Virus record (IMG/VR): IMGVR_UViG_3300035698_008855
From: an uncultured virus (IMG/VR IMGVR_UViG_3300035698_008855)
Lineage: Duplodnaviria; Heunggongvirae; Uroviricota; Caudoviricetes
Reading direction: 5' to 3' (one strand)
Length of the DNA: 64,000 nt
A program made the position numbers and the translations under genes. Under the pieces are notes generated by a model. The model searched no databases, was not told where the DNA came from, and saw only the letters and a program-made list of their open reading frames with translations. Positions 7,738-35,698 of this stretch are shown here, one piece after another (the first letter of the stretch is position 1; every line of letters begins with the position of its first letter).

Positions 7738-8297
7738 ACAGCTACCCTTGCGTTCCACGTGTACTTGACCACCTGCTTCTTGCAATGCAAGCGCATAGTG
7801 GTCAACTCCGTAAAGATGGCGGGCCGTATATCCTGCATCCAGTTAGGGTTGCTCAACGGGTATCAAGGTCTTATCCGGGCACAGGCGGCTTTGTCCCTAG
7901 CGAGTGGATTTGCGCGGCTCTCCTTCATGACGTTATGGAGGATACCGACATGGATCTTCTCGACGAGGACGTCAACCCGGACATCATTCGTATCGTTGAA
8001 CTCCTCTCTCATGACGGCGGGTACGAGGATTCGAAGATGGATGCGGTTCATCAGGTCAAAGGTAACTCTGGTGCTATCATGATCAAGATCTGTGATCGCC
8101 TTGACAATATGGGGAGGGAAGATGAACCCTCTCTCATTTATCGCCGTAGGCCGATAGTACGTACATCGACGCGCATGCTGCTCGATTATGCACAAGGCAT
8201 CGAGTTTGATGACGGCACACCGTTTGTGGCGTCTACTCCGTTCCGGGCGCTCACACAGCTGCTTGAGATCATTAATCGTGAGGAAGGAATCACATGA
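7734..8297 (+). CDS. HD-domain hydrolase, RelA/SpoT hydrolase (small alarmone hydrolase/Mesh1)-like
   Basis: HxGQxRKDGxPYIxHP, AALLHDVMEDT and IKxxDRLDN motifs. Confidence 0.85.
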   Translation: MNSYPCVPRVLDHLLLAMQAHSGQLRKDGGPYILHPVRVAQRVSRSYPGTGGFVPSEWICAALLHDVMEDTDMDLLDEDVNPDIIRIVELLSHDGGYEDSKMDAVHQVKGNSGAIMIKICDRLDNMGREDEPSLIYRRRPIVRTSTRMLLDYAQGIEFDDGTPFVASTPFRALTQLLEIINREEGIT

Positions 8298-8881
8298 AGA
8301 AGATCGACGAACTTCTTGTTGTGGACGTGGAGTCGACCTGTTGGGAGGGTATGCCTCCGACGGGGCAGTACTCTGAGATCATCGAGATCGGGATAGGTAG
8401 GATTAACCTACGCCATCCCTTCGTCTCGGTACCGCCGAGTAGCATCTTGATCCGCCCGGCATTCTCCTTTGTGAGTGAGTTCTGTACAAGTCTCACAACG
8501 ATCACGCAGAAGATGTTGGACGATAAAGGCGTCTCTTTCCGGGTGGCGTATGAGATGCTTACTACCCAGTACCGTTCTCGCGATCAGATATGGGCGAGCT
8601 GGGGCGATTACGATAGGCGTCAGGTAGAGAACGTCTGTCACCTGCACCACATACCGAACTCTCCGTTTGGTGTTCGGCACATCAACCTCAAGACTCTCTT
8701 CTCTATCTCTCGTGGTTTCCACGGAGAGGTAAGCGTGGAGGACGCGCTGGAGACTATGATGTGGGAATTTAAGGGTACACTCCATCGGGGTGTAGACGAC
8801 ACATACAACATCATGCGGTTGGCGAAAGCCATACTGCGGTCCCTCGGTAACATTGGCCAGTACGCTGGAGGTGAGACTTAG
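8294..8881 (+). CDS. DEDDh 3'-5' exonuclease (ERI-1/KapD-like)
   Basis: VVDVESTCW, EIIEIG, SWGDYD and HRGVDD motifs. Confidence 0.85.
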   Translation: MKKIDELLVVDVESTCWEGMPPTGQYSEIIEIGIGRINLRHPFVSVPPSSILIRPAFSFVSEFCTSLTTITQKMLDDKGVSFRVAYEMLTTQYRSRDQIWASWGDYDRRQVENVCHLHHIPNSPFGVRHINLKTLFSISRGFHGEVSVEDALETMMWEFKGTLHRGVDDTYNIMRLAKAILRSLGNIGQYAGGET

Positions 8882-9303: not shown

Positions 9304-9541
9304 GTTTCCGGCTTGCGTTGGGTGCGGCTACTGCTGTTTACAGGCGACGTGTCTTCAGGGGCTATACGAAAATCCTGGATTGCCTCTCGGTGTTGTCTGC
9401 CCTGAGCTGGTATGGCGCGGGACGATGTACCGGTGTCTGCTGGCCGAGAGGTCAGCCGAGGGTATGGCGTGTATACTCGCAGGTGTGGGGTGCTGTTCCT
9501 CCCTTAATACGTGGCGCCAAGATGTACGGTTCCGCGATTAA
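9293..9541 (+). CDS. small Cys-cluster protein (YkgJ-like); start uncertain
   Basis: CVGCGYCC...C...CPEL...YRC; no clear ATG/GTG nearby. Confidence 0.45.
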   Translation, partial: TTTEFPACVGCGYCCLQATCLQGLYENPGLPLGVVCPELVWRGTMYRCLLAERSAEGMACILAGVGCCSSLNTWRQDVRFRD

Positions 9542-9557
9542 ATTTACGGCTGCAACG

Positions 9558-9575
9558 CGTTACTATCTCTTGAGA
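9558..9575 (+). promoter_or_regulatory. candidate phage promoter motif CGTTACTATCTCTTGAGA
   Basis: 17/18 identical to 5998-6015; intergenic. Confidence 0.55.
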
Positions 9576-9627
9576 TGGTCAAGCATTGTGCTTGTCCGTA
9601 ATTTTGGTATCCGTGGAGGATGTAGCA

Positions 9628-10206
9628 ATGACGATGGGAAGACACATTTTGATGGTCGTGATCATATCGGCGGTTGTGTCAATGTTTATGTCGATGTTCG
9701 TGTTGATCTCGGCGAGGGTGTACTTGAATCGTCCAGTCGTCCTCACTGAGACGGCTACGCATGTGGCTGAGTACGCGAAAGCCAACACTGAGCGGGCGCG
9801 TAAGGCTACGTGGGACGTATACATGCAGAAGCCTGTGTCTACGTTCAAGGATCTCTTTGACGCGGTCTGCACAGTCGCGTCAGGCAACGACGACGGTCAC
9901 CACGGCAAGTATGGTGAACGTGGTCCCGCGCAGATATTGCCTATATGCGTAAAAGACTGCAATGAGATTATAGGCAAGGAGATCTGGGGCATCGAGGATC
10001 GAAGCTCCAGAAAGTTGTCGTACGAGATGTTCTACACGTACATCCCCTTCTACCTAGAGGGGTTACGGGACATGGTAGACATGTCGGTGCTCGAGGCAGC
10101 GGCAAGGATATGGAAGGGTGGCCCGTCGGGTTACCGTAAGAAGTCAACTGAGGCTTACTGGCAGAAGGTTGCCAGGCAACTGGAAGTAATGAAGAACGCA
10201 CGCTGA
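9628..10206 (+). CDS. membrane-anchored lysozyme-like protein (i-type/transglycosylase-like), possibly inactive
   Basis: N-terminal TM helix; GPAQI, DR, ARIWKGGPxG..KKST..YWxKV; VASG where VESG is expected. Confidence 0.7.
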   Translation: MTMGRHILMVVIISAVVSMFMSMFVLISARVYLNRPVVLTETATHVAEYAKANTERARKATWDVYMQKPVSTFKDLFDAVCTVASGNDDGHHGKYGERGPAQILPICVKDCNEIIGKEIWGIEDRSSRKLSYEMFYTYIPFYLEGLRDMVDMSVLEAAARIWKGGPSGYRKKSTEAYWQKVARQLEVMKNAR

Positions 10207-10299
10207 CTGGTACCAAGGCGTGTTGGTGAATAGCTCGAGGGAAAGGAGAGACGTACTGAAGTTTCGTAGCTACGACGTATTTCCAGTACAACTCTAGAG

Positions 10300-11382: not shown

Positions 11383-13962
11383 ATGGCTAAGAGTGATGCT
11401 GCCCCCGGACTACCCGACTTTACTCGCTACGGGAGTACACGCACCCTTCCGCTCAACAAGCTCCTTCCCTACGTCGTACAGGAACACAAGGCGAAGAGAG
11501 CGGGATGCTTTACAGCAGATGCATTGGTGTTAATGGCAGACCGTACACATAAACGTATTGCAGACGTATGTGTAGGCGATTACGTAGCCACCCCTTTTGG
11601 TGATGCAGCAGTATCAAATGTGTGGTACAATGGAGTTACGAAAGATTGGTTCAGCGTGCAGTGTGGAGCTGAATCAACTACGGTAACGCCAAACCACGCC
11701 TACTTTGTTAGGGGCGTTGGCGCGGTACCCGTTGAACTACTGGAGCATTATCATGGCGCCGTCAACAACTACGGAGAAATTGAACTCTCAGCGCAAGACT
11801 TGCGAAGTGTGCGGGAAGCCGTTTGTCGTAAAAAAGACTCGGGCTGCTTACACGAGGAAGACGTGCAGAGGGGCGTGCGCAACCAAGTTGGGGCACAAGC
11901 ACAGCGGGCTAAGGCACATCAAACGATCGAAGGAGGGCATAAAGAGGGCTGCGAAGAGCGCGGTGGAGTTTCATCATACACGCCGGTTAGCGCGTTACTC
12001 GGCGTTGCGGGACGTGAAGAGAATAGTGAGGGCTATCTTAACAAACACCACAGTAGCCAGCGCAGCCGTCAGCCTAGAATGCCCGCCGGAAAGGTTGAGA
12101 TCGGAGCTACGGTATTTGGGTCTACCGATACCAACGCCAGCAGAGATGCCGAAGGAGTTAGGCGACGCAAAGGTTTTAGAGGATCTATATGTAAAACAGC
12201 GGAAATCGCTAAATCAGATCGGCGAGATGCTAGGGGTCAGCAGGATGACAGTATCTCGTGCATTTCAACGGTTGAAGCTGTCGGTATCTGCGTTGAAGAA
12301 GGAAAAGGGTACCACGTCAATTTACAACGCGAGATACCGCAAAAAGCGGGAGGCCGCGCTGGTAGCGTCAAACGGAAAATGTGTATGGTGTGGGCGGACG
12401 GACAACGTAGATACACATCATTGTATCCCGGGTACCCTGCTGACACCGTCGCAAGATTACGATCTGTGGCCCATGTGTCGAAGGTGTCACCGGAGGTTGG
12501 AACAGCTATTTCGCCGAATGGCCGGAGAACTTTTTGTGTCAAAAGGTTGCCCAGGGTTTCAAGATGCCGTTATGATCTTAAGGTCAAAGATGTCCACATG
12601 TACGTAGCTGGTGGGTGTCTTGTTCATAACAGTCATTACGACATTAGGTTCGGACCCGACCAGCTTTTTTCATGGGCGACGAAGAAAGAGCTCCCGGAAG
12701 CAGGGGAGCGGATCGCCGTCTATCAGCAACCTCTCCACCGAGGCTCCTACGCTGAATTTGAAGGAACCCTCGCTGAAGGATACGGGGCAGGTACCGTCAA
12801 GCGTAAAGACAAAGGGTTTGTCCTCGTCACCAAAGTAGACGACGACAAGATCTCTTTCGTTGTTGCCCACAAGAAGTTCCCCGAACGCTACACGCTGGTG
12901 CGCAACAAGAAGGCGCCAAAGACGTGGTATCTGATCAACACGACGCCTATGGATGTCGGCCGCATGCTGGCAGGTAAGAAGGTAGACCCTGGCGGGCAGA
13001 CGTCTGAAGCGATGGGCATCAACAAGGTGAGGTACACGAAGATTCCCGCCGAGCAGGTGGAGAAGCTCTTCAGCGGAGACTACCTCAACTCAGAGAAGAT
13101 CGACGGAGCTGCGGCGTTGTATCACGTTCTCTCCGATCGTATTGAAGCGCTGTCCTACCGAGCGAGTAAAACCGGCAGGCCCATCATACATACGTACAAG
13201 GTAGGGGGACTTACCGGCGTAAATATACCTAAACAGCTCGTAGGATCAGTTCTTCGAGGAGAGATCTGGGGTGAGCAAAAAGGTAAGGCCATCCCACCCC
13301 AAGAACTCGGCGGACTACTGAACTCGTCTGTGGCTAAGAGTCTGCAGGATCAGAGTTCACGCCAGATCAATATGCGTAATGCCCTCTTTGACATCTACCG
13401 GCTGGGCAAAGAGCCAGTCGATCAGAGTCTTCCGTATGAGGAGAGGTTGGCCAAGCTACGCGAGGTACTCAAACACATGCCGGAGGGGAAGTTTCACCTT
13501 CCGCAGATGGCTTCGACGCCCGAGGGATCGCGTAAGCTATGGGACGACATCCAGTCTGGACGTAACCCCAGAACATCAGAGGGCATCGTTGGGTGGCCTA
13601 AGGCTGGAGGTAGACCTGTTAAGGTTAAGCTGTTGGATGAGCGTGATGTGTGGGTAAAGGAAGTGTTCCCCGGCGCCGGTAAGCTGAAGGATAAGGCTGC
13701 GGGTGGATTCAGGTACTCGCTCTCTCCCAAAGGTCCTGTAGTGGGTGCTGTAGGCAGCGGGTTCACTGAAGACACACGCAGGCAGATGTGGGAACAGCAG
13801 CAGGATTGGATCGGCAGAATGGCACGAACAAAGAGTCAGGCTCAGTTCCCGAGTGGCGCACTACGCTCTCCTGTCTTTCATGGACTTCATGAAGACTACC
13901 CCTTGAAGAAGTCAGCTGCGTGGCGGTGTGGGTATACATGTAGTGTGCAGAAACCTCAGTAA
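11383..13962 (+). CDS. LigD-type 3'-phosphoesterase / ATP-dependent DNA ligase fusion, intein-containing
   Basis: YVVQEH..[intein]..HYDIR, SWA, FEG..GYGAG (phosphoesterase); SEKIDG, GEIW, FDI, EGIV, KVK, VGSGF, LRSPVF (ligase and OB fold). Confidence 0.9.
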   Translation: MAKSDAAPGLPDFTRYGSTRTLPLNKLLPYVVQEHKAKRAGCFTADALVLMADRTHKRIADVCVGDYVATPFGDAAVSNVWYNGVTKDWFSVQCGAESTTVTPNHAYFVRGVGAVPVELLEHYHGAVNNYGEIELSAQDLRSVREAVCRKKDSGCLHEEDVQRGVRNQVGAQAQRAKAHQTIEGGHKEGCEERGGVSSYTPVSALLGVAGREENSEGYLNKHHSSQRSRQPRMPAGKVEIGATVFGSTDTNASRDAEGVRRRKGFRGSICKTAEIAKSDRRDARGQQDDSISCISTVEAVGICVEEGKGYHVNLQREIPQKAGGRAGSVKRKMCMVWADGQRRYTSLYPGYPADTVARLRSVAHVSKVSPEVGTAISPNGRRTFCVKRLPRVSRCRYDLKVKDVHMYVAGGCLVHNSHYDIRFGPDQLFSWATKKELPEAGERIAVYQQPLHRGSYAEFEGTLAEGYGAGTVKRKDKGFVLVTKVDDDKISFVVAHKKFPERYTLVRNKKAPKTWYLINTTPMDVGRMLAGKKVDPGGQTSEAMGINKVRYTKIPAEQVEKLFSGDYLNSEKIDGAAALYHVLSDRIEALSYRASKTGRPIIHTYKVGGLTGVNIPKQLVGSVLRGEIWGEQKGKAIPPQELGGLLNSSVAKSLQDQSSRQINMRNALFDIYRLGKEPVDQSLPYEERLAKLREVLKHMPEGKFHLPQMASTPEGSRKLWDDIQSGRNPRTSEGIVGWPKAGGRPVKVKLLDERDVWVKEVFPGAGKLKDKAAGGFRYSLSPKGPVVGAVGSGFTEDTRRQMWEQQQDWIGRMARTKSQAQFPSGALRSPVFHGLHEDYPLKKSAAWRCGYTCSVQKPQ
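11506..12630 (+). mobile_element. intein (375 aa) in the ligase phosphoesterase domain
   Basis: G|CFTADALV..., TPNH block B, ...YDLKV...LVHN|S; removal restores HKAKRAG-SHYDIR. Confidence 0.9.
11753..12607 (+). CDS. HNH homing endonuclease (Zn finger + HTH + HNH) in the +1 frame inside the intein
   Basis: GGAG RBS at 11742-45, ATG 11753; CEVCGKPF..TC..AC; HTH SLNQIGEMLGVSRMTV; CVWCG..DTHH..LWPMCRRCH. Confidence 0.85.
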   Translation: MAPSTTTEKLNSQRKTCEVCGKPFVVKKTRAAYTRKTCRGACATKLGHKHSGLRHIKRSKEGIKRAAKSAVEFHHTRRLARYSALRDVKRIVRAILTNTTVASAAVSLECPPERLRSELRYLGLPIPTPAEMPKELGDAKVLEDLYVKQRKSLNQIGEMLGVSRMTVSRAFQRLKLSVSALKKEKGTTSIYNARYRKKREAALVASNGKCVWCGRTDNVDTHHCIPGTLLTPSQDYDLWPMCRRCHRRLEQLFRRMAGELFVSKGCPGFQDAVMILRSKMSTCT

Positions 13963-14576: not shown

Positions 14577-14722
14577 GACTGATGGTTGTGCAGTCCACGT
14601 CCCCCGGATGGGCCTCAGGTTTACCCCTGAGGCCCACCTTGTTTTCTTTGGGAGAGGAGAACAGGGGAGAGGAGGAGTGTAATGTTCATATGCAGGTCCC
14701 TACTCGAAAGGAGCCAACTACA

Positions 14723-15628
14723 TTGGCCAAATCAAAGGGAGCCGCAAAGAAGGACACGCCACCGAACGCGTCGAAGACGATGGAAGAGTTCGTTGGGCAG
14801 CAAGTCTCATCCGGTACGATCCGACAGGAGGCGACGCAGGTTTGCCTGCTCACGCTCAGCCTGACGGGTCTGACCCCGCTTATCATGCACGCCAAGGGCC
14901 CGATCATGCAGTACGGCATGAAGTGCTCCGTTGGCCTGCTGCCGAGGCCCGCGAAGAAGCCGCCCCGCAACCAGGGGGCGGAGCTCGTCGACTCGATGTA
15001 CCTCATGGAGCCGTGGGTGGAACCGCCTCCCATCGACCCCATGAAGGGTCCGATCTACACGAACTATCCGTCGATGGCCGAGATTGCCGCGCTTCCGTCG
15101 CCTGTGGTGGGTCTCCCCGCCGAGGCGCTGAAGAAGGCGATCGTCAAGGCCGTGACGCGGTTCAGCGATGTTCGTGGTCTCACCGGCACGAAGGTCTCCG
15201 GAGCTGTGTGGGTTCATGGTATCCACAGCCCCGTGTGCCGCAGAACGCTGCTCCCAGTGGAGTATGAGCAGCTGCTCGTCAATGAAGCCGTGGTCCCGAT
15301 CGGTGGCTTCGGTTCCAACAGTACCTCCGACGTTCGCACCCGCCCGGAGTTCCACGGCTGGACGATCAAAGCGCCGGTTACGTTCAACCCCCTCGTCATG
15401 TCGCCGAACATCCTTCTCGAGCTGGTCAACATCGCCGGGCAGTCCATCGGCATTGGCGACCACCGTATCGAGAAGGGCGGAGAGAACGGCGCCTTCAAGG
15501 TCGCCGACGGCTACAAGGACACGGTGGTGAAGACGACCCTCGAAGCGATGTACGAGGGCTACTACCAGGGTGGGCAGCTTCCCACGGCGAAGAAGACCAG
15601 CAGAAGGAAGAAGAAGGCGGCGGCGTAG
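14723..15628 (+). CDS. Cas7/RAMP-like RNA-binding protein (standalone, phage type)
   Basis: First strand LSLTGLTPLIMH; helix GLPAEALKKAI; RTRPEFxxW; Gly-rich loop AGQSIGIGDHRIEKGGENGAF; AAGGAG RBS before TTG 14723 (alternative start ATG 14690). Confidence 0.75.
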   Translation: MAKSKGAAKKDTPPNASKTMEEFVGQQVSSGTIRQEATQVCLLTLSLTGLTPLIMHAKGPIMQYGMKCSVGLLPRPAKKPPRNQGAELVDSMYLMEPWVEPPPIDPMKGPIYTNYPSMAEIAALPSPVVGLPAEALKKAIVKAVTRFSDVRGLTGTKVSGAVWVHGIHSPVCRRTLLPVEYEQLLVNEAVVPIGGFGSNSTSDVRTRPEFHGWTIKAPVTFNPLVMSPNILLELVNIAGQSIGIGDHRIEKGGENGAFKVADGYKDTVVKTTLEAMYEGYYQGGQLPTAKKTSRRKKKAAA

Positions 15629-15750
15629 AACGCCTAACATCCTGAGTATCTGTTCCTCCTTTTCCCCTCATCTCCCATGACGTACCTTATATGGCCCCTC
15701 CTGTGCGGGCCTATTTTCCTGTGGAGAAATGACTCCTGAAAGGAATCTGT

Positions 15751-16488
15751 ATGGCTGCAAAGAAAGCCGCGAAGAAGAAGCCGAAGCCTCGCGCGAAGCT
15801 TGGTGGTGTCGGTAGAGGTAAGGGTTTCACCCTCAATGTCGCTGGGCTCGGGCCCTGTGAGAAGTACATGTTCAAGGCAGCACCTGGAGCGCTTTACGGA
15901 AACGATAAGGCGCAAGAGATCGGCGATTGGATTGTCGCTCTACTTCTCAGTCGGAAGGTCAATCATCTCACCACGCAGGAGCTGCATGAGGAGATGACCA
16001 CCGACGCAGCTTGCCCGGCTCATGAGGTCTACCAGTGGGACGACGATAAGGCCGCTGATCAGTTCCGCAGGACGCAGACGCGCCAGATTGTCAATCATCT
16101 TCGTGCCCGTGTCATTGAGATCGATGTCGAGCCGATGCCGCCCGAGTTCCTTCGCACCATGCCCGATACGGAGATCGATCTTCGCTTCCGTAGTGTCGAC
16201 AGACCTACCGACGGCGATGATACCGACACGGGGGCTGGGTGCAAGGCTTACTACTTGGATCCGGCGATCAAGAGCGACAAACAGCTCCGTTTGGCAACGG
16301 TCCAGAGGGCGATGGTCGAGATGACCCAGTGGGCCAACCGCTACGAGTACTTCAATGAAGATCCTCGCATCGCGACGATCATCCGTGCCATCAACCGTGC
16401 CAACCCCGGTTGGAAACGGAACAGTGTGGTGGCGAAGGCTCGTAGGGCCAAGAAGCAAAGAAGAAGTGATCAAGGCGATCGCGGCTAG
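15751..16488 (+). CDS. partner protein of the Cas7-like gene, unknown function
   Basis: AAGGA RBS; Lys-rich termini; LT..E......PxH..YQWDDxKAAxxFRxxQxRxIV motif. Confidence 0.75.
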   Translation: MAAKKAAKKKPKPRAKLGGVGRGKGFTLNVAGLGPCEKYMFKAAPGALYGNDKAQEIGDWIVALLLSRKVNHLTTQELHEEMTTDAACPAHEVYQWDDDKAADQFRRTQTRQIVNHLRARVIEIDVEPMPPEFLRTMPDTEIDLRFRSVDRPTDGDDTDTGAGCKAYYLDPAIKSDKQLRLATVQRAMVEMTQWANRYEYFNEDPRIATIIRAINRANPGWKRNSVVAKARRAKKQRRSDQGDRG

Positions 16489-18080
16489 TCTCGCCACGTC
16501 ACGTCCTTCTTCGTCATGGCCGTCTCGTCATTACTCGGCTCGTCTCAACCAGGCCTGTCCGCTCAAGGCCGTCATGGCTCGACCTGCCACATCCTGCCAG
16601 GCCAAGGCTGTCGTGACAAGCCTTGCCTCGTCTGCGCATGCCTCTCCAGGCCAAGGCCGTCTCGGCTCCTCTGAGCAGGTCTGACCTAGTTGCACCCAGT
16701 CACGGCCGTCATTGTGCCCACGTACGTATTGCGTGGGCCACTCTTGTCTTGTCCGTTCGTGTCACGGCCGTCTTGTCGTGACTGAACTACACGTACCGTG
16801 TCGAATCGAGACACACCACCGCAATCTCAAGGCCGTCAGCTCATGTCACGTCAGTTCATACCTAGTCTTTTCTTGCCTAGTCTCTCCAAGGCCGTCAACT
16901 CAGGTTCTTTCGAGCCAGCGCTGGCCTCATCTCGTCTAGTCGTATCGTGTCTAGGCCGTCATGTCGACGCGTATCCTGCCAGAGCAAGCTCTGTCAAGGC
17001 CGTCTGGTCGTCTCGTGGCGACACCAGGCAAGCCACGTCTCATCAAGGCCGTCCTGTCATACCCGATCGAGTCATCACGTATCTAGTCGGGCCAATACTT
17101 GCCCCCTCAAGGCCGTCGAGGCGTACCCTGTCAGCACCGAACCAGTCACGCCCAGTCCTCTCAAGTCGGGCCAAGGCCGTCTTGGCTAGTCCCGTCTGAA
17201 CTTGTCTTGTCTTGCCGAAACAAACCAGGGCCGTCTAGGCGCGCCTTGTCTCATCTCGACACACCTAGCCTCCTCCGGGCCGTCACGTCAAGCCCCGTCT
17301 CGCCAAGTTAGAGCAGTTCTTGTCTGGGCCGTCATGTCGCTGCCAGACTCGTCTCATCTTCTCGTACCTTCTCACCGCTGGGCCGTCTAGGCTCGTCGCG
17401 GCTCGTCTCAGCTTCACCCGTCTCCTCCGGGCCGTCTAGTCTGGTCCCGTCAGACCTCCTCTGGTCGCTACCATCTGTGTCAAGGCCGTCTAGTCCAGTC
17501 ACACCTCGTCCCGTCCTATCTCCTCGTGCCACGGCCGTCAAGCCACACCATCCCCCGTCATCCCCCCTCCGGTCGGGTTGTTACGGGTCAGATCGAGGCC
17601 GTCATGTCCGTTCCAGCCAGCTCAAGTCGTCGCCTTGCCCCCTCATGGCCGTCTGGTCTTGCCTTGTCTCGTCCAGTCTCCCCTTGACTTCACAGGCCCG
17701 GGCCGTCAGGTCATACCTAGCCCCGTTGTGTCACGTCTCACCTAGTCGCGTCACATCAAGGCCGTCTAGACTCGTCGCGTCTCATCCAGTCGGCGCCTAT
17801 CCCCTCGGGGCCGTCGGGTCCAGTCCGCTCGTTTCACGCCCAGTCTCGTCTTACCACGGCCGTCTTGGCGCGTCCCTCCATGTCCTGACAACACCGTACC
17901 GGCCCCGGCCGTCGGGTCTGTTCGACTCTGGTCCAATCTCCTCCCCTCACCCCTAGGCACGGCTGTCGCGTCTAGGCAAGTCGTATCGAGTCTTGTCCTC
18001 TCATCTCCGGGCCGTCATGTCGCCTCATTTCGTTTCGGGACCAGTCGCGACGAGTTATGCCAAGTCATGACGTCTCCTGG
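16474..18080. repeat. non-coding array: 29 GGC(C/T)GTC-punctuated units of 5-nt xYC-NN modules (candidate guide-RNA array)
   Basis: 27 GGCCGTC and 2 GGCTGTC between 16518 and 18010, plus degenerate GGCGATC at 16474; 25 of 28 spacings equal 5n+4 (39-64 nt). Confidence 0.9.
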
Positions 18081-18092
18081 CCAAATGAACAC

Positions 18093-18131
18093 AGGGGGTG
18101 GCGCTTCGGCGCTGCCTCCTTTCTTTTAGCT
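18093..18131 (+). terminator. intrinsic terminator closing the array, ending in TTTAGCT
   Basis: AGGGGGTGGCGC-TTCG-GCGCTGCCTCCT followed by TTCTTTT. Confidence 0.85.
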
Positions 18132-18132
18132 A

Positions 18133-18161
18133 TTGCGTCGGTACAAGATACGAGATAGACT
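18133..18161 (+). promoter_or_regulatory. sigma70-like promoter TTGCGT-N17-TAGACT
   Basis: 17-nt spacing; intergenic, 50 nt before ATG 18212. Confidence 0.5.
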
Positions 18162-18211
18162 AAAGGGTGAGATCGAAACTGTACAGTCGACACGGACTCT
18201 GAGGTTAGACC

Positions 18212-20647
18212 ATGGCCAGATATCCTCAGACGCTTTCCGTCAAAAAGCGGAAGCGGGTGAAGGAACTACTGCACGGAGATAAACCCGATTACGGCGTCCA
18301 TCCACACGGAGGGGCTGGCCGTATCGTTGAGGAGAAGAAGAACCCTCAGCGTGTACACACGTGCAAGAACAACATACCTCGGGGCATGGAGAAGGAAGCG
18401 TTTTGGCCTCAGCTACTTGCTCTCAGCGCCAAGGCTATCGCAGCTTTAAGCGCCGCAGGGGCAGGTACGTCAGCGCTCGAACGTAACGCGCTGGGCAAGC
18501 TCGTTGCAGCTAGGGGTAAGCTCAAGAAGTTTGATGACCAAGATAAAGTGCGTAAGGCGACGATGAAGCGGCAGTTCGGTCGATACGCAACAGGTCTTCC
18601 GGAGAAGAAGGAACGTGGCCGGGAGGCATTCAAGAAGTTTCTGTCGGCGAGGTATAGGGGTGAGTTTGATGCTGAGCGCTTTCGTCGAATTGAAACGGTC
18701 CTGGACGCGTGGGGAAAAGGGGATGATCCGCAGGCGTGGATAGAGTATCTCAAGACTCAAGAGCGTGACGAAACCGGTAATATGGTTGAAAGCCCAGGGC
18801 TTTTTATCCGGAACCAGGCTATTAAGTCTATGCAGTCTACAGGGGGATTCGACGAAAAGACAGCAGGGACACATTACGATACGCTCGTGAAGAATGGTCT
18901 CATTCAACCTGAGAAGTATCAGCTTGGCCCTGGTAAAACGGCAGCAGACTACGCCTTGCTACCTGACTTGAAGAGTATGGGGACTGTCAACCTCGCAGGC
19001 CCTCAGGGTTCTCAGAAGATGCTTGAGCTTGTAGGTCGAGGTGTAGATCCAAGGCGTGTGCGGGCTGGAGTGCATATGCTCGAGAATTGGGGCATGACGC
19101 GTAACCTCGCAGCGCAAGAGGCTGTACACAGCGAGGAGAAACCGCAGCTGACGCTCGCGACTATGAGGATGCGGAGCGCCGACTTTGACCCAACAACCGC
19201 TCGCAACTTTGCCGCGCAGCTTTCAAGCAAGGGTACTGAGATTACGCCTGCGCTGATTAACGGCATCATAAAAGATAAGTCGGTTCAAGCCTACGTAAAG
19301 AATCAGAAAGAACAGGCGGATCTGCAGGAGCTCTATGGGGTCGCAGCAAAACAAGCTACACCTATGACGATGCCTGACCTCACAGCTATTGGTCAGGCTC
19401 ATGCGGAAAACGTTGGCTGGACGAGCCTAAGTCCAGGAGCTGGAGCTATCATGGCGGATGTGGCTGGTCAGGCTGCACGGGTAGCGACTAAAGGTAGGCT
19501 CTTTTCTGGAGCCACCCAAACAGGTAAAGCCTTAAACGCCGTTAGACAAGCGATACAGACTGCAGGTGGCGGTATTGGTGGGACTGTTAAAACGTTGGGG
19601 CGCTCTTTAGGTTCTACTGCGGGATACATGGCTGCGGCACAAAGTTTGATTAACACAGGGATGGCTACGCCTTCACTTTTACATGATGCAGTCGACACAG
19701 CGGGAGGCGTAGGCGCTAACCTTTTGGGTAAAGAGTGGAGGTACGGTTCCGGATCTCTTGATAACCCGGAGTTCAGGGAGTACGAGCGCGCAGGCCGTAA
19801 GAACGTCGAAGAAGCACAGGCGCGGGGTGACTCAGATCTTGGCGACACAGCTCTACAAGCTGGAAAAGGTGCGGTCCGTTTTGACCCTGGTGCAGATCGT
19901 AACTCGATGGCTGTAGCCATCAACGCTGACGCGGGAACCCCGGAAGCCCAAGAGAGTTTCATGCGCCGCGAGCGTCTGAAGCATCTCGGTCTACCCTATG
20001 AGTGGGCGCGTAACATGATGATGGGACGGTACTACCTCAACGCGATGCGTAAGGGACAGAGTTACCCGGGTGATCGCCAAGAGTTCCTGCGTCGCTTCAT
20101 GGTTAGGCCGCAGGTAGCCGAGGAAGAGCGTACAGCTAATCGCGGCACGTCACTCATGCCGGGCACCATCTACATGAAGGACGTTTATGGCAACGAGTTC
20201 GGCACAATGGACGAAGCCATGAAGTATTGGAAGAAGAAGTACCCGAACATGATGAACGTCAGCCAGCGCGGCACGTGGATGAAGAATACGGCTGGCGGAC
20301 AAGAGTCTGATCCATACTACTACTACGCACAGGGGCTTCAGTATGTTCCTGAGTCCAGGTGGGGAACGACGAAGGCGCAACCAGCCATTGACTCCAAATC
20401 TGCAGTAGATCTAATTCAGCGCGGGCTTGATCCCAAACCGTTTTGGAGCGCGAAGACCCACAGACGTGATATACTGAACCCAAGAAAAGATGAGACTGTC
20501 CGAGTTGTGCCTGACACGGATAGAGGTATAGCCAGCAGCACTAGGTCTATACAAGATACTCTCAGTCCCCGGTCTATATTGAAGACCCTTACAGAGAGTG
20601 CAAACAAAGGCATACAGAGGCCGCACTTTGACGACGCGAGTCTGTAA
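18212..20647 (+). CDS. large hypothetical protein, possible inner-head/ejection protein
   Basis: 811 aa; GAGGT RBS; EKEAF and EKTAG motifs; Gly/Ala-rich helices. Confidence 0.7.
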   Translation: MARYPQTLSVKKRKRVKELLHGDKPDYGVHPHGGAGRIVEEKKNPQRVHTCKNNIPRGMEKEAFWPQLLALSAKAIAALSAAGAGTSALERNALGKLVAARGKLKKFDDQDKVRKATMKRQFGRYATGLPEKKERGREAFKKFLSARYRGEFDAERFRRIETVLDAWGKGDDPQAWIEYLKTQERDETGNMVESPGLFIRNQAIKSMQSTGGFDEKTAGTHYDTLVKNGLIQPEKYQLGPGKTAADYALLPDLKSMGTVNLAGPQGSQKMLELVGRGVDPRRVRAGVHMLENWGMTRNLAAQEAVHSEEKPQLTLATMRMRSADFDPTTARNFAAQLSSKGTEITPALINGIIKDKSVQAYVKNQKEQADLQELYGVAAKQATPMTMPDLTAIGQAHAENVGWTSLSPGAGAIMADVAGQAARVATKGRLFSGATQTGKALNAVRQAIQTAGGGIGGTVKTLGRSLGSTAGYMAAAQSLINTGMATPSLLHDAVDTAGGVGANLLGKEWRYGSGSLDNPEFREYERAGRKNVEEAQARGDSDLGDTALQAGKGAVRFDPGADRNSMAVAINADAGTPEAQESFMRRERLKHLGLPYEWARNMMMGRYYLNAMRKGQSYPGDRQEFLRRFMVRPQVAEEERTANRGTSLMPGTIYMKDVYGNEFGTMDEAMKYWKKKYPNMMNVSQRGTWMKNTAGGQESDPYYYYAQGLQYVPESRWGTTKAQPAIDSKSAVDLIQRGLDPKPFWSAKTHRRDILNPRKDETVRVVPDTDRGIASSTRSIQDTLSPRSILKTLTESANKGIQRPHFDDASL

Positions 20648-24810: not shown

Positions 24811-27800
24811 ATGCCAACGCCTAATGTTCTCGGCAAGGACATCTTCTCGTTCGATGATATCCCGTCAGCACGTCGGGATATCTTTGATCGTACACTTGGC
24901 GCCTTCCAGAAGCACTACCCTCTTGAGAACTCCAGATACAGGCTGCGACTGAACAACCTTCAGTACGACCCCAAGGACTTCTCAATCAGTGATCAGAAGA
25001 AGGCGCTACTGCAGCATGGTACGCTTTCCAATCGCCTCAAGGGTACATGGGTACTGGAGGATAAGGCAGACGGTCGAGAAGTAGACAGAGCTGATCGTAT
25101 CGTTGCGCACGTACCATATATGACGAACAGAGGTACCTTCATCCATCAGGGCCGCGAATACACGATCACTAATCAGATGCGGCTGAGACCTGGAGTTTAT
25201 GCGCGGGAGAAGGAGAATGGAGCCCTCGAAGCGCACTTCAACGTCAAGCAAGGAACCGGATCCTCTTTTCGAGTTTACATGGAGCCTGAGACGGGCGTAT
25301 TTCGGCTCAACATTCATCAAGCCACTCCTAAACTGTTTCCGATCCTTCGTGCGTTGGGCGTTGACCGACGAGAACTCATCAAGTGGTGGGGAGAAGAACT
25401 CGTAGGCGTCAATGAAAAGGCCGACGATCCCAAGGCGGTCAAAAGACTCTACGACATCCTGACGCACAAACGCGCGAAGCAAGGTACAGGCGACAAAGAG
25501 GATATTGTCAAGACGCTGCGCGATGCGTTTGAAGCTATGCAGCTCGACGAAGAGACCACTAAGTCTACACTCGGCGCCGCCTACAAGAATGTGTCAGCAG
25601 CGACCGTACTAAGAGCTACGCAGAAGCTGATTAACATCCAGCACGGTAAGGAAGAGGCCGATGACAGAGACTCTCTTAGATATCAAACTTTCCACACCCC
25701 CGCAGATTTCTTCTCGGAACGTGTCAATCTCGACTCGGGCCAGAAATCCAGAAGACTTCTCTGGAGATCAACCCTTCGGGGTGGTGTACAACACATGCCG
25801 GGCGGCGCTCTTACCTCGCAGCTTGAAAGCGTTCTTCTCCACTCCGGTCTAGGTCAGCCACTGGAGGAGATCAATCCGCTGGACATTCACGACCAGCGTC
25901 ACCGCGTGGTGCGTACAGGTGAGGGTGGTATCTCTTCGATGGACAGGGTCCCCGAGGAATGCTACGACGAGGATACGGAGGTCTTTACGCAGGAGGGGTG
26001 GAGGTTTTGGGACGAGGTAGACAAGACAACAAGATTTGCCTGTCGAATTGATGGTAAGTTGGAATTTCACGCTGCTAAGAAGTTGATACGAGATGAATAT
26101 CAGGGCGAACTATACTGTGTTCAAACACAGCATCTGAATCTTCTTGTAACACCAGGGCACCGGATGTTTGTGAAGAAGTACCGAAAAAATCATAAGCTGT
26201 TTGATTATTTGTTCGAGAGAGCTGATGACGGGTACAGAAAGCCTCGTCTTTTTTGTATTTCGCACGCTCCACTTGACACAGACTGTGCCGGGACGTTCAC
26301 GCTGCCGGAGGTTTGCGGATCAAGAAAGGTCTTGGCCCCCATTGATCTCGACGACTGGGCGGAGTTCCTTGGGTGGTATGTTTCAGAGGGTGGTATTGAC
26401 AGCTACGCTTTGCGGGAACGTAGTAAGTACCACATTACGATTAGTCAGGTCCGATCGAAAAACCCTGAGAACTGCGACAAAATAGATGCGTTGTTGTGCC
26501 GCATGGGTATTCAGTATTCTTATCAGTCGGACCACAATTTCGTTTTTGTAAACAAGCAGTTAGGCGAGTATCTCAAAAGTCTTGGCGTTGGCGCGCTCAA
26601 CAAGCAGCTTCCGCACTGCGTATTCTCCTGGCCGGTATCGGCGCGAGAGCGGCTGCTTGATGCTCTGATTGCCGGGGATGGTAGCATTCAGAAGTCAGGG
26701 CACAGGACGTTCTTCTCAACGAGTAAGGAACTCGCGTCTCAAGTATCAAGGTTAGCGACGTTAAATGGTTACGCGTCACACGGTGTTAGTACGTCGGTAA
26801 GAGAGAACCCGGCGCATAACGATCTGTATGCGTGCTCTATTTTAACGTCTACTGAAACCGGAGTGACGTCCGAACGCCAGTACGATACATCTTATCGCCG
26901 TGTAAGGTACGACGGCGAGGTGTTCTGCGCACAAGTACCAGGGGAGCTTCTCCTAGTTCGTCGCCACGGGTCTGTACCGGTCTGGAGCGGTAATAGCCGG
27001 AACGTACAGCCCTCTTATTTCGGTCTCATCGATCCGATACGAACGCCAGAGAGTGTCAAAGTTGGTGTCGACAACCGCATTGCCCACCGTACCTACTACG
27101 GCAAGGACGGTAAGTTCTACTCGCAGCTCCAAGACACGCTGACGGGAAAGACTGAGTTCGTAGACGCGGCAGAGATGTCTCGATCGACGATCGCGTTCCC
27201 TGGCGAGATGGAGAAGAAGGGAACCAAGGTACGCGCGATGGTTGGCGGCGCGCGTGTAGAGTACGTCGATAAGAAAGACGTGAACTATACGCTTCCCGCT
27301 AGTACACAGATGTTCAACTTTCACTCTAACCTTGTACCGTTTATCAGCGGTATCAAGGGCGGCCGCCTTCTCATGGGGTCTAAGTTCTTCAACCAGGCAC
27401 TGGCGCTACGTCAGGGGGAAGCGCCGCTCGTTCAAGCGCTGGACCCACACGAGACCGGTCTCCGGGGTGTAGACACTAGCTTTGAGGACTTGGCGGGCAC
27501 GAGCCTTGGCGCCATGTATGCTGGAGAGGCGGGCCAGGTTACGAAGGTGACGGGAGATGAGATTACCGTCAAGTCGAGTGATGGTAAGCTACATACGTAT
27601 GAAACGTACAGAAATTTTCCATTTAATCGCAAGTGTATATGCGGCAACACCTTACTACAAGTCTGGCGCAAAGATAACACAATGTGGGTTGGAGAGGTAC
27701 AGCACTATATCTTTACGTCGGGAGACCGTACGCTCTCCATCGATGAGCACACGAAACAGGCTGTGTGGAAAGACATACGCGCGATTGTTAGGCTGAAGAA

Positions 27801-30800
27801 TGATAAACGGCTATTTCGTGTCAGACTGCAATCCGGGCGCGAACTGACTACCACGGAGGACCATGCCTGGTTATCTCTCTCAGACGCCGGGGATCTCATA
27901 TCCGTGGATGCATCGAAACTACGGGTGGGTAGCTACACGCCGCGTATTCTCCAGACTCCGGCGACTATCAGTGATTCCGATGAGGTTGTGTTTGGCGCCA
28001 GATCTCATAGGGAGGCGAGGACCTTTAAGCTGGACAATACTTTTGGATGGTTTGTAGGTCACTGGCTTGCTGAGGGGTGTTGTAGCGGTAAATACCAGCT
28101 AAACTTTGCGATCTCAAACGTAGCAATGCAGCGTAGATTTAGGGACGTCTGTGAAACGCTTAAGTTAACGTGCCACACGTACGCAACCACGAGTTACGCG
28201 AATTCTGTGCAACTCGTTGAATGGCTGAAGTTGAACTTTGGATATCTAAGCGGCGGCAAGCGTATACCTGGATGGTTGCTTAACGCTCCGGAATCGTTCA
28301 GGCGGGGCGTGCTTTCCGGTTATTGGGATGGTGACGGGGAAGTTTCGCTACTAAAGTCTGGGGCAGTTGGTATCGTTGCGGGAACAGCGAGTCAGCAACT
28401 CCGCGATGGGTTGGTATTACTTTGCCACACACTTGGACTGGATACGGCTATCCGCGTACAACCTATACGAGGTGGCAAGCCCTCGTATCAACTCCGGATT
28501 TTATCGGAGTATGCGCATAGGATGCCTCTCCTTTCGCACGCAAGAAAACAGCGTCGACTCGATGAGGCAAAAGTTTCTGCGCATAGCTCTTACGCACGGG
28601 TACCGGCATTTGCATCCGCGTTCCAACAGGTTATGGATGTTTGCCCTCGCGAGCAGTACCAAAGCTATTATCAAAAGGGATATCGAGGTCACTGGGATAA
28701 GGAAACGCTACATGCGTTGAATTTGCCAGAGTCGTCTACACTGCGTCAATGGTTGGACTCCGACGTTATTTGGGATAAGGTAGCACATATCACAGAGGTG
28801 GAGCATGAGGACGCTGTGTACGATGTAGACATGGGTGACTCCAATTTCTGTTGTAGTCTCGGTGTGTTCGTACACAATACCTTCATCCATAACACACCCA
28901 CCGTGCAGCCGGGCGACGTCGTCAAACCGGGGCAGATCCTCGCACGAAGCAACTACACAGATGAAAATGGTTCGCTATCGATGGGCGTCAACCTCCGCAC
29001 AGCATACATGCCCTATAAGGGGCTGAACTTTGAGGATGCGATTGTCATCTCGGCGAGCGCAGCGAAGAAGCTGGCGAGCGAGCACATGTACAGTCGCGAC
29101 CTCGATGAGACTGAGGGTGCGAAGGTCAGCCGCCGTAACTTCATCTCTCTATTCCCGTCCAAGTATGACAAGGCGCAGTTTGATACGATCGACGACAACG
29201 GTGTAATCAAGCCGGGTACGGTAGTCCAGAAAGGTGACCCTCTTCTTCTTGGTGTAGCCAAGCGGCCGCAGTCTAAGCTCTACCGTGGTGGTCGTGTCTC
29301 GATGTTCAAGGATGTCTCTGTTGCGTGGGATCACGACTCCGAGGGGTTCGTGACTGACGTAGAGAAGAAGAAGGGTGGCTGGAACGTCATCGTTAAGTCT
29401 TACGAGCATCTGCAAGAGGGCGACAAGCTCTCAGGCCGCTATGGCGATAAGGGTGTGGTGTCGAGAGTCATCCCAGATGAGCAGATGCCTCACAGCGCTG
29501 ATGGTGGCCACTACGAGGTGTTGCTCAATCCGTTGGGTATTGTGAGTCGTACCAACCCCAGTCAGATCTACGAAGCTCTTCTCGGTAAGATTGCCCGTAA
29601 GCGCGGCAAGCCCTACAAGGTGCCCGCGTTCATGGACCAGTCACTCATTGACTACACACGTCGTGAGATGGCGCGTCATAACGTCAGTGACACTGAAGAC
29701 CTGATTGACCCCACCACAGGGAAGAAGATCCCGGACGTACTGACGGGCGAGCGTTTCATCCTCAAACTGCAGCATACCGCAGAGTCAAAAGGTAGTGGAC
29801 GCTCACAGGCGTCTTACACGACAGAGGGACTCCCCGCAGGTGGTGGCGACGAGGGAGCTAAGAAGATTGGTCAGATGGCTTTGACCGCACTCCTCTCTCA
29901 CGGCGCCAGCGAAGTGATCAGAGATGCAGCCGTCGTTCGAGGTCAGCGTAACGACGACTACTGGCGGGCGTTTCGTTTGGGGTACAGTCCGCCCACCCCG
30001 AAGGAAACGCTCGTCTACAAAAAGTTCCTTGAGAGTCTGAAGGCCGCAGGCATCAACGTCTCTAAGCGTGGTGACTCGGTACACGTCTTTGCGCTTACTA
30101 ACAACGACGTCAGCAAGATGTCACACGGGGAGATCAAAACCTCTGAGACGCTGGACGCGAAGAGTGGCCGTCCTATCCCTGGAGGCCTGTTCGACCAAGG
30201 TGTTACGGGTGGCATCGGCGGTAATACATGGGGGCACATCAAACTGCCCGAGCCGATTTTGAATCCGATCATGGAGAAGCCAGCGCAGATCCTACTTGGG
30301 CTCACTGGGCCGCAGTTCATGAATGTCGTGTCAGGCAAGACACCTATGTACGGTAAGCACGGCGGGCATGCGTTGACGGCAGCGCTGAAGCGTATCAACG
30401 TCTCCGACGAGATCGACAGGACGAAGCAGGACATCAAGTCTGCGTCAAAGACCACAAGGGACCGTGCAGTTAAGAGACTGGGCTACCTGAACGCGATGGA
30501 GAAGCATGGCGTAAGCCCCCAAGACTTCATGTTGGACGCCATCCCTGTGCTGCCCCCGTCTTTTCGTCCGATCGTGATGCAAGATAAGATGAAGCTCGTA
30601 GCTCACCCTAACCTGCTCTACAAGGATATGCTGGACGCAAAGAAGGACTTCAACGATCTCTTCCCGCAGTTGGGTGACGAGGGAGTGAAGGACGAGCGTC
30701 TGCGTATCTACAACTCTTTCAAAGCCGTGGCCGGGCTAGGTTCGCCTGTCTCTCGTAAGTTGCAGGAGAAGAGCGTGCAGGGTCTCCTTGGTCACATTTT

Positions 30801-34231: not shown

Positions 34232-35698
34232 ATGAGTCGCCAACAGGTTGAAGCACAGCTTACCGCTTTCTTTAACGGCATTGATCGTTTTGGTAAGGAA
34301 GCGTCGTTGTCTCCGAAGCATATTGAGCACATCAAAGACAACGCCCTTCTGCAGTTGTGGAAGGAAGCAGCAGCCCCAGGTGAGCGGAAGACCCAAACAC
34401 ATGGCGGGCAGGACAATGCAGTCGATCCTAAGGGACCTGATACACCTGCCACAGTAAAGCCTGTTGCGAAGCCCGCAGATCTTCCTACAGTAATGCCGCC
34501 GGAGCCTCAAACTACGGCTTCGGTGGTACCCGCTGCAAGACCTGCTGCGAAGCCTCAGCCTACGCCTGCGGTCGCGGGTGTCGCTGCTCCTGCCCCAACA
34601 GCTGTTGCGCAGCCGCAAGCGAAGAAGCCTGCGGGGAAACCTGTAGCAGATGCTTCGCCGAACCGTGGCAGCATGTGGAAACAAATTCTTGGCCACTTCA
34701 TGAACAACCCGGGCCGCCTATCCCTCTTGCTCTCTGGCCTTGCCCTCGGCGGTGTCGGCGGTGGTATGGCTAACGGATGGAAAGGCGTACTTGGCGGCGC
34801 ACTCGGTGGCGGTATGATGGGATATGGGATGAGTTACATCCCACAGCTACGCAACGCGCTTGCTGGCGCAGAGCAAAGTGCATTTGGTATGACGCTACCC
34901 AAGGCAACAAAGCAACAAGCACCCGCTGCCGCTAAAGATGATATGGAGAATGTTTCCCCGGTTACACCTGCGACCGTGGCCACTCCTGGTACACCTGCAG
35001 CCGTAGCTGGCGCACCTACTGCCCCAACTTCAGCAGCGGTACCCTTTACGCCTACGTACATGTACGACGGTAAACAGAACATATCTTCGAGTGTAGCGGA
35101 TTGGGCCAACGGCGGCTTTGATACTGACAGCGGGCTTGCTGACCCTGCACGGATTCCGGCCTTTGCAAAGAAGCTGTCTGAGTTTGAGTCTACCCCCGGA
35201 AACGAAGGAATGATTCCTTTCCAGGGAATTACACCTAAACAGTACGAACATATGCGTGGGCTTTATGGGATGAAGACACCCTGGGCGGCGCATACAGGTT
35301 GGGCCACGTATAAGCAACCCGGTGCGGCAGGGGAAGAAACCGTAAACCCTAATCCCAACGCAGCGGCCGCGACCGCTGCAACAGAACCTGTTAGCATCTC
35401 TCCTGAGCAGAGCGCGTCCCTCTCGGAGCTTGCAGCAAGCACGAGAAGTAGGGATTCGAAGGGTATTGTTATGCTCATTAACGGTTACAACGTTCTTGGA
35501 TACCTGGACGCAACCAGAGAAGCAAACAAGGCGAAGTTCAGGGAAGCTATCAAGATGTATGACCAACATATGGCTTCTGGCGCCACAGGACCTATGGCCG
35601 GTGTTAGCCAAAGTGATTGGCCTGAGCTGCAACGTATAGTACAGTCCGTTAAGATGTACCCTACACTATTCCAACCTAGTAACGCGTCACAGACATGA
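34232..35698 (+). CDS. Pro/Ala-rich hypothetical protein with a Gly-zipper hydrophobic segment
   Basis: GGAGG RBS; KEAS and KEAA motifs; ATGA overlap with the beta'C gene. Confidence 0.75.
   Translation: MSRQQVEAQLTAFFNGIDRFGKEASLSPKHIEHIKDNALLQLWKEAAAPGERKTQTHGGQDNAVDPKGPDTPATVKPVAKPADLPTVMPPEPQTTASVVPAARPAAKPQPTPAVAGVAAPAPTAVAQPQAKKPAGKPVADASPNRGSMWKQILGHFMNNPGRLSLLLSGLALGGVGGGMANGWKGVLGGALGGGMMGYGMSYIPQLRNALAGAEQSAFGMTLPKATKQQAPAAAKDDMENVSPVTPATVATPGTPAAVAGAPTAPTSAAVPFTPTYMYDGKQNISSSVADWANGGFDTDSGLADPARIPAFAKKLSEFESTPGNEGMIPFQGITPKQYEHMRGLYGMKTPWAAHTGWATYKQPGAAGEETVNPNPNAAAATAATEPVSISPEQSASLSELAASTRSRDSKGIVMLINGYNVLGYLDATREANKAKFREAIKMYDQHMASGATGPMAGVSQSDWPELQRIVQSVKMYPTLFQPSNASQT

Follow-up and report, generated by a model that had tools for sequence, protein, structure and literature searches.

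We identified, in a 64,000-nucleotide (nt) stretch of DNA from an uncultured virus (IMG/VR record IMGVR_UViG_3300035698_008855; the whole stretch is called the window below), a 1.6-kb array of phased pentamers that lies directly downstream of two genes on the same strand. We read this region as the guide-RNA (vrRNA) array of a VIPR (Viral Interference Programmable Repeat) system in a jumbo-phage-like virus, with a probability of about 0.92. The locus combines a gene for a RAMP protein (Vipr) beside the repeats, pentamers made of a triplet and two variable bases (NN), a two-gene vipr-vap operon and no association with CRISPR or cas genes. Its triplet is GUC-like and not GGY, which places it in the "related consensus" class of VIPR repeats. 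VIPR is a kind of system already known since 2026, and this locus is unusual for its size and for the presence of GUC in place of GGY.

The text of the discovery preprint describes VIPR as a CRISPR-related weapon of phages, made of a minimal RAMP protein (Vipr) and an accessory gene (vap), with vrRNAs built of 9-16 pentamers, each a GGY triplet next to two hypervariable bases, NN (10.64898/2026.04.26.720920). According to the same text, the NN bases pair with double-stranded DNA with one base in three skipped, and the natural targets lie in rival phages and satellites. Seven types are distinguished there; among them are "staggered arrays with overlapping vrRNAs", where each guide shares 1 nt with the next. 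The architectures that it gives as confirmed by RNA sequencing are the hammerhead-interspersed and single-guide ones, the staggered one not being among them. For the VIPR of Escherichia phage SUSP1, the model phage of the discovery preprint, the text of a second preprint (10.64898/2026.04.26.720927) describes a right-handed filament with one protomer per repeat, in which each triplet (G1, G2 and Y3) is buried by a pair of adjacent protomers that leave NN presented; G1 is contacted by H17 and D177, G2 lies between R138 and W178, and the pocket for Y3 excludes purines.

Anatomy of the pentamer array

Each pentamer of the array consists of a fixed triplet (mostly GUC, with the C practically invariant) followed by the variable NN, and successive units are separated by a 4-nt GGC-C step after which GUC resumes. 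The original prediction, made from the letters of the window, had listed 29 starts of the word GGC[CT]GTC, and all 29 were recovered exactly in positions 16474-18080 (27 copies of GGCCGTC and two of GGCTGTC). The word has nine other matches in the remaining ~62 kb of the window, and its reverse complement GACGGCC occurs three times in the window and never in the array region. The start-to-start spacings were those predicted (49 nt twelve times, 54 nt five times, 64 nt four times, 59 nt twice, and 44, 39, 62, 65 and 50 nt once each); 25 of the 28 follow the rule 5n+4, as do 26 of the 29 unit lengths when the final unit is counted. That only the spacings of 62, 65 and 50 nt deviate was therefore correct, with the refinement that the last unit (69 nt to a closing GGCC at 18079) is in phase. 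An additional unit of seven pentamers precedes the one at 16518 and begins at 16483, within the stop codon of the upstream vap-like gene.

The letters of the unit at 16518, which had been offered as an example, match the pentamer parsing proposed for it, and our phasing procedure placed 27 four-nt steps in the array. The idea that GGCC serves as punctuation stood in part: the word does recur, but it is better parsed as one short step, GGC with one N and not two. This short step shifts the pentamer phase by -1, and relatives of the array do likewise with GGCA, GGCG and GGCT. The 5n+4 spacing is that expected from a 1-nt overlap of guides of n+1 pentamers, which is the geometry of a staggered array.

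The autocorrelation at lag 5 was 0.416, compared with 0.274 in 200 dinucleotide-preserving shuffles (z = 14.1), so that the predicted period of five was not refuted; it extended to lags of 10 (z = 13.1), 15 (z = 10.5) and 20 (z = 8.8). A logo was made from the 243 pentamers of the 25 units in phase, omitting three out-of-phase units and the last unit. Position 3 was C in 236 of the 243 pentamers and T in the other seven, with no A and no G (1.81 bits), which agrees with the claim that the third base is nearly always C. Position 1 was G in 62-63% of the pentamers (0.49 bits), and position 2 was U in 59-60% (0.44 bits) and G in 11%. Positions 4 and 5 carried 0.05 and 0.01 bits, respectively, and NN is thus more variable than the triplet, as the prediction required. 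All 29 units compared were distinct, as had been noticed, and the closest pair of equal length was 71% identical.

The composition of the array is strand-asymmetric (C 37%, G 24%, A 15%). No ORF (open reading frame) in the list for the window spans the array, a search of positions 15500-19000 against Rfam gave no match, and the predicted fold of the whole array was no more stable than that of 20 shuffles (z = -0.94). The unit of 62 nt, off the pentamer grammar, is predicted to form a hairpin (Table 1) and may be either an internal signal or a decayed guide.

The vipr and vap genes and their recurrence

When the boundary word was first sought in viral contigs as three spaced copies, most matches were due to chance, but four viral loci have the grammar of the window and the triplet GGC or GGT. 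The ORFs of the array contigs were compared with those of the window, and two conserved genes were found immediately upstream of the array and on its strand; their products in the window are called proteins A and B. Protein A matched the array-adjacent proteins of three viral loci, on unrelated contigs, by blastp (E values of 3e-13, 8e-9 and 7e-5), and it has PHROG 4652 ("unknown function") in common with its homologue in locus L121. Protein B is 21-22% identical to the genes that follow vipr in loci L121 and L123, with invariant columns that include H..WD and Q.R, and has PHROG 15946 ("unknown function") in common with the L121 gene. Neither protein matched a family in Pfam or NCBIfam.

Our survey of related loci covered the best 80 viral loci encoding a relative of protein A; such relatives were present in 578 of 600 among the pattern matches listed. 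A relative of protein B was found in 79 of the 80 loci, mostly directly after vipr. Three loci end too soon after protein B, which left 77 to be judged, and a period-5 tract adjoins the vipr-vap pair in 65 of these 77 at the strict threshold, while 11 of the remaining 12 have such a tract at the same place at a relaxed threshold. No period-5 tract was found elsewhere in the 587,898 bases of the surveyed loci. The commonest boundaries in the relatives are the 4-nt steps GGCA, GGCG and GGCT followed by GGC or GTC, and the distances from step to step obey 5n+4 in 399 of 491 cases, being mostly 49, 54, 59 and 64 nt as in the window.

The 30 guides of the window are exceeded in the survey only by two near-identical arrays of 2.4 kb. 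These staggered arrays, the largest in the survey, belong to the near-identical viral loci L159 (5401-7800) and L161 (4951-7400), have about 40 steps each and use mixed triplets (GGC ~45%, GTC ~25%).

The AlphaFold model of a member of the protein A family, built on a 57-sequence alignment, had a pLDDT (predicted local distance difference test) of 91.2 and adopts the RAMP fold: a Foldseek search returned 90 structures of the Protein Data Bank (PDB) at E<=1e-3 (best 3.3e-6), all of them Cas7-type RAMPs, with Csm3, the type VII Cas7, Cas7-11 and Cmr4 among them. A Vipr is a minimal RAMP characterised by an RRM core, a glycine-rich loop and a thumb. The motifs T.D.R.R and G.G[DE].R..(K/R)G are conserved in protein A, the G-loop of which reads GIGDHRIEKG. 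The profile of the family aligned with the SUSP1 Vipr (hhalign 95.7%, E 8.6e-9) over 164 columns that include the G-loop. Since the SUSP1 gene aligns to the profile of protein A, we take protein A to be Vipr, protein B to be the vap of this clade and the region downstream to be the vrRNA array. In the metagenomic protein collection the family numbers more than 1,130 proteins, and the source names were "hypothetical protein" throughout among the 120 listed.

The more likely start of vipr, judged from the sequence, is the ATG at 14690, 108 nt into the ORF, which would give a protein of 312 amino acids (aa), because AGGAGG lies upstream of it and the resulting N-terminus, MQVPTRK, resembles that of the L124 homologue (MPTRK). 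The AlphaFold 2 model of the vap member from locus L125 (pLDDT 87.2) is mostly helical; it had no Foldseek match at E<=1e-3, and the VIA wide search gave generic helical-hairpin matches only (residues 100-155, Z<=8.7).

A length quantised in steps of five with variable content had been taken by the original prediction as the mark of guides of 7-12 modules measured by a protein, and neither of a satellite nor of a coding repeat. This is supported by the Vipr and vap genes directly upstream, by the recurrence of the trio in 65 of 77 loci and by the SUSP1 filament with one protomer per pentamer, and guide activity would follow by analogy with SUSP1.

Comparison with staggered VIPR arrays, as the text of 10.64898/2026.04.26.720920 presents them, showed the same phage-borne vipr and vap with tandem triplet/NN pentamers, the same 1-nt overlap of guides leading to the 5n+4 spacing, and the same lack of a long conserved 3' tail between guides. 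The window differs in its triplet (G 63%, U 60%, C 97% instead of GGY), in having 30 guides over 1.6 kb, in units of 7-13 pentamers compared with 9-16 in the characterised clades, and in a nearly invariant GGCCGUC boundary. Its Vipr is also longer (312-348 aa compared with about 195-257 aa) and has His at the Trp/Phe stacking position. The type II VIPR of SUSP1 (KT454805.2; Vipr of 195 aa at 28474-29061 on the minus strand) resembles the window in a Vipr homologous at the profile level, in the vap gene that follows and in pentamer guides on the gene strand, and its Vipr gene is flanked by two intergenic GGY/NN tracts. However, SUSP1 has four guides of ~100 nt with a structured 3' tail and flanks of their own, whereas the 30 guides of the window are abutting and tail-less, and its repeats are GGY/NN whereas those of the window are mostly GUC/NN.

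The backbone of Class 1 CRISPR complexes (Csm3/Cas7 on crRNA) is alike in the RAMP fold and G-loop of the family model, and in the placement of one protomer per fixed RNA step with a thumb that displaces bases, as described in the text of 10.64898/2026.04.26.720927. It differs in its step, which is of 6 nt with one base flipped, compared with 5 nt and three bases buried in VIPR (the 6-nt step is given in the text of 10.64898/2026.04.26.720920), and no CRISPR repeats, Cas10, Cas5, Cas6 or adaptation genes lie near the array of the window. Tandem Repeats Finder detected no long direct repeats in positions 15000-20000, and the 27 larger proteins of the window matched no Cas family in PHROGs. CRISPR-Cas type III, which is marked by an array of 24-40-nt repeats with spacers, by Cas10 and by further RAMPs, was rejected on the grounds that the only repeat is the 7-nt GGCCGTC, that the "spacers" are pentamer tracts and that no further Cas families appeared in the PHROG, Pfam and NCBIfam scans.

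Proposed mechanism, the GUC triplet and alternative readings

The analysis shows the anatomy of the array, its linkage to genes of the Vipr and vap families, the recurrence of the three together and the RAMP fold of the family. From the preprints, and by analogy with SUSP1, we infer that the system of the window would load RNA, target DNA and silence genes of competitors. The genes vipr and vap and the array would be co-transcribed from the plus strand up to the terminator at 18093-18128, and Vipr protomers would polymerise along the RNA, one per pentamer. The fixed G, U and C would be buried, with the C in the pyrimidine pocket, and the two variable bases exposed, so that each unit of 7-13 pentamers would be one guide of 7-13 NN pairs abutting the next through the GGC-C step shortened by 1 nt. 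The exposed NN would pair with double-stranded DNA with every third base skipped, in a register matching codon periodicity, and the bound genes of rival phages, satellites or prophages would be silenced.

Several results weigh against this reading. When the guides were decoded with 0-3 skipped bases and compared with controls of shuffled NN order, their matches in the rest of the window and in 1.66 Mb of retrieved loci were no better than those of the controls. Four guides were also sought in viral contigs through exact matches to 9-10 of their NN pairs, which yielded 2, 0, 0 and 0 matches; the two matches are about the number that we estimate for chance, they extended to 19 and 21 of 24 positions, and in the better of them the skipped base falls at codon position 1 and not at the wobble position. 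The triplet is less strictly conserved than the canonical one (G1 62-63%, U2 59-60%), the homology of the vap-like protein is weak (21-22% identity), and the structural model is that of a family member and not of the window Vipr itself. The window Vipr is also divergent: its relatives in a full HMMER search numbered 902 at E<=1e-3, not one of them reached E<=1e-30, and the best relative is 41% identical over part of the length (E 9e-20). Moreover, none of the sequencing runs listed for the stretch is recorded as RNA, from which expression and unit ends could be read.

The NN composition was compared with codon positions 1-2 of the window genes, which gave a Spearman coefficient of -0.48 (p = 0.06) for the sense strand and of +0.27 for the antisense strand, neither of them significant. 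By tblastn, the window Vipr had no match in 50,697 phage records, and a family representative matched only five Gordonia phage records, at 28-29% identity. No close relatives of the window Vipr were found in metagenome contigs or by word-indexed protein search.

The triplet was then considered together with the protein residues that would contact it. In alignments, the residue equivalent to W178 of SUSP1 is His in the window Vipr (GIGDHR), which retains His/Asn, Asp and Arg at the positions that align with the G1 and Y3 contacts. Among 82 family members the W178 equivalent is W in 51, F in 19, G in 7, Y in 4 and H in one; among the best 150 of the 902 relatives it is W in 92, N in 9, Y in 6, H in 6, G in 4 and another residue in 9, and the motif is absent in 24. 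The arrays beside the seven Viprs with Gly at this position are richer in A at position 2 (mean 0.26 vs 0.11-0.13). These seven loci (L143, L165, L167, L168, L173, L178 and L183) have the loop GVGDGRPEK, and their arrays are enriched in GAC, with A at position 2 in up to 52% of the pentamers.

GUC-type arrays were sought with a 21-base pattern. In metagenome contigs the pattern gave 106 loci, three of which have a period-5 tract (L234 and L239 clearly, L254 doubtfully); in viral contigs it gave no loci, and in genome contigs at least 120, none of those listed having a period-5 tract. Locus L234 thus provided a second GUC-type staggered array, with GTC in 59 of 75 pentamers, and this array lies directly 3' of a gene for a 240-aa protein of the Vipr family (hhalign 98.4%, E 4.9e-15) with Gly at the place of W178.

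Co-variation of the triplet with the G-loop is suggested by one His case and one added Gly case, the equivalence of the residues being drawn from alignments. It is possible, and we hold it tentatively and with more doubt than belief, that GUC/NN forms a "dialect" of its own within the VIPR code. The dialect would depend on which G-loop residue stacks on the second base of the triplet, an aromatic residue going with G, and His or Gly with U or A. Triplets other than GGY have been published before: the text of 10.64898/2026.10.21.760802 describes 21 clusters of period-5 arrays that adjoin Vipr-like folds and do not use GGY, and names GAC/NN, CAC/NN, WGT/NN and TGH/NN as examples. That text nowhere contains the string "GTC", and the full list of patterns stands in its fig. 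S10A, outside it; a GUC-type consensus may already be present in that figure, or in the type tables or figs S17/S18 of 10.64898/2026.04.26.720920.

The locus could also be a VIPR system whose decoding differs from that of SUSP1, by another skip length, by an RNA instead of a DNA target, or by being orthogonal to the GGY type. The low frequency of G at position 2 (11%, vs 40-85% in 70 of 72 related tracts), the His of the window Vipr, a residue present once among the 82 family members, the L234 array beside a Vipr with Gly and the empty result of the target search with a 1-nt skip all speak for it. However, the NN spacing and unit lengths of the window equal those of the GGY-type relatives and its Vipr retains the residues at the G1 and Y3 contact positions, and an empty target search is to be expected if the rival elements of the habitat are missing from the collections. 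We consider such a different decoding improbable. That the array consists of decoy or "solo" vrRNAs, which would redirect the Vipr of a rival instead of arming its own, is very unlikely: the text of 10.64898/2026.10.15.759431 describes standalone vrRNAs used in this way by satellites and phages, and no vipr accompanies the four arrays of the 45-kb G002 contig, but intact vipr and vap genes lie directly upstream of the window array in one transcription unit, and the unusual triplet accompanies an unusual G-loop in the neighbouring Vipr. The G002 arrays (locus L122, G002:C1:25100-45046) are of the GGC/NN kind and are located among tail genes; no Vipr-family gene was found in this 45-kb viral contig, which is estimated to be 28% complete, and they may be solo vrRNA arrays or their vipr may lie in the missing part.

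Readings without guides are disfavoured, and we hold them to be exceedingly unlikely. Such readings are a sponge RNA that captures a ring- or filament-forming RNA-binding protein able to read triplets across 2-nt spacers, as TRAP does; an origin with clustered GTC sites for a primase; and a pentanucleotide satellite in decay. The triplets bound by TRAP lie 2-3 nt apart, GTC is the recognition sequence of T7-type primases, and the strand asymmetry of the array would suit a single-stranded role. However, the decay of a satellite would erode all five positions alike, and position 3 is 97% C while NN is random, which bears out the earlier statement that this is not a satellite. No TRAP family was found by Pfam in 10 proteins (seven of the window and three of related loci), the triplet of the relatives is GGY and not GTC, and the Cas7-like gene that is linked to such arrays in 65 of 77 loci already accounts for the array. 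TRAP-type attenuation was rejected when Pfam gave no TrpBP or other RNA-binding ring family among the seven window proteins around the array and the neighbour was a RAMP protein; a sponge for Rho or a host factor, TRAP-like binding, a primase-site cluster and G-quadruplexes were abandoned after the RAMP nature of the neighbouring protein became clear.

Phage context and significance of the locus

The coordinates of the array, its genes and the other features are given in Table 1.

Table 1. Positions of the assigned features (in the window, except for the last row, which refers to locus L122)
Feature	Position	Strand	Description and basis
vipr, minimal Cas7-like RAMP	14582..15628	+	ORF of 348 aa; blastp, profile and family model
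vap-like accessory gene	15751..16488	+	245 aa; unknown fold; between vipr and the array
Putative vrRNA array, staggered	16483..18082	+	30 units of 7-13 pentamers; phasing, autocorrelation and logo
Atypical 62-nt unit	16704..16765	+	Off the pentamer grammar; 9-bp hairpin GCCCACGUA...UGCGUGGGC; minimum free energy -30.4 kcal/mol, z = -1.95
Predicted intrinsic terminator	18093..18128	+	12-pair stem, TTCG loop, T-rich tail; would close the vipr-vap-array unit
L122 arrays	about 7800-8650, 9425-10250, 11875-12225 (minus strand), 16175-16600		

All large ORFs of the window are on the plus strand. Pieces of a multisubunit RNA polymerase (beta/beta') were found by PHROG matches at 24811-32535 and 35695-37545, other matches being to a major head protein and a tail sheath, and among phages a polymerase piece matched jumbo phages at ~29% identity. 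A near-identity search with positions 15700-19000 gave no match in the 50,697 phage records. Taken together, these protein matches and the lack of a near-identical record indicate that the window derives from a large tailed phage without a close cultured relative. The ORF at 24811-32535 (plus strand) encodes 2574 aa and has several matches to PHROGs of phage RNA polymerase beta/beta'; PHROGs named thymidylate synthase and ribonucleotide reductase matched it as well, over short stretches, and these may, from the sequence, mark inteins or homing elements that interrupt a fused gene for the polymerase. The 859-aa protein encoded at 11383-13962 (plus strand) joins a LigD-type 3'-phosphoesterase domain to an ATP-dependent DNA ligase domain and has weak matches to Hint/Vint (intein-like) domains at its N-terminus, and an 811-aa downstream protein had no relatives in viral contigs.

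Short contigs from four salt-lake metagenome DNA runs matched parts of the stretch in 17 pieces, 15 of which showed no difference from it, while one differed by a single letter and one fitted only partly. With pieces this nearly uniform, no population variation of the array units was visible.

VIPR was described only in 2026, and the systems characterised at the bench are of the GGY type, from enterobacterial and Pseudomonas phages. To these the locus adds one of the largest arrays of our survey, a jumbo-phage-like genome with RNA polymerase genes of its own and a provenance in salt-lake metagenomes, and it is a clean example of the staggered architecture, which was not confirmed by RNA sequencing in the discovery preprint. 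The pairing of a changed triplet with a changed RNA-contact residue offers a direct and cheap test of guide-loading specificity, and this specificity matters for the use of Vipr proteins as orthogonal programmable DNA binders. If the dialect is real, a GUC-type Vipr would load only its own guides and be blind to the GGY-type decoys of rivals, and several VIPR systems could coexist in one cell without cross-talk.

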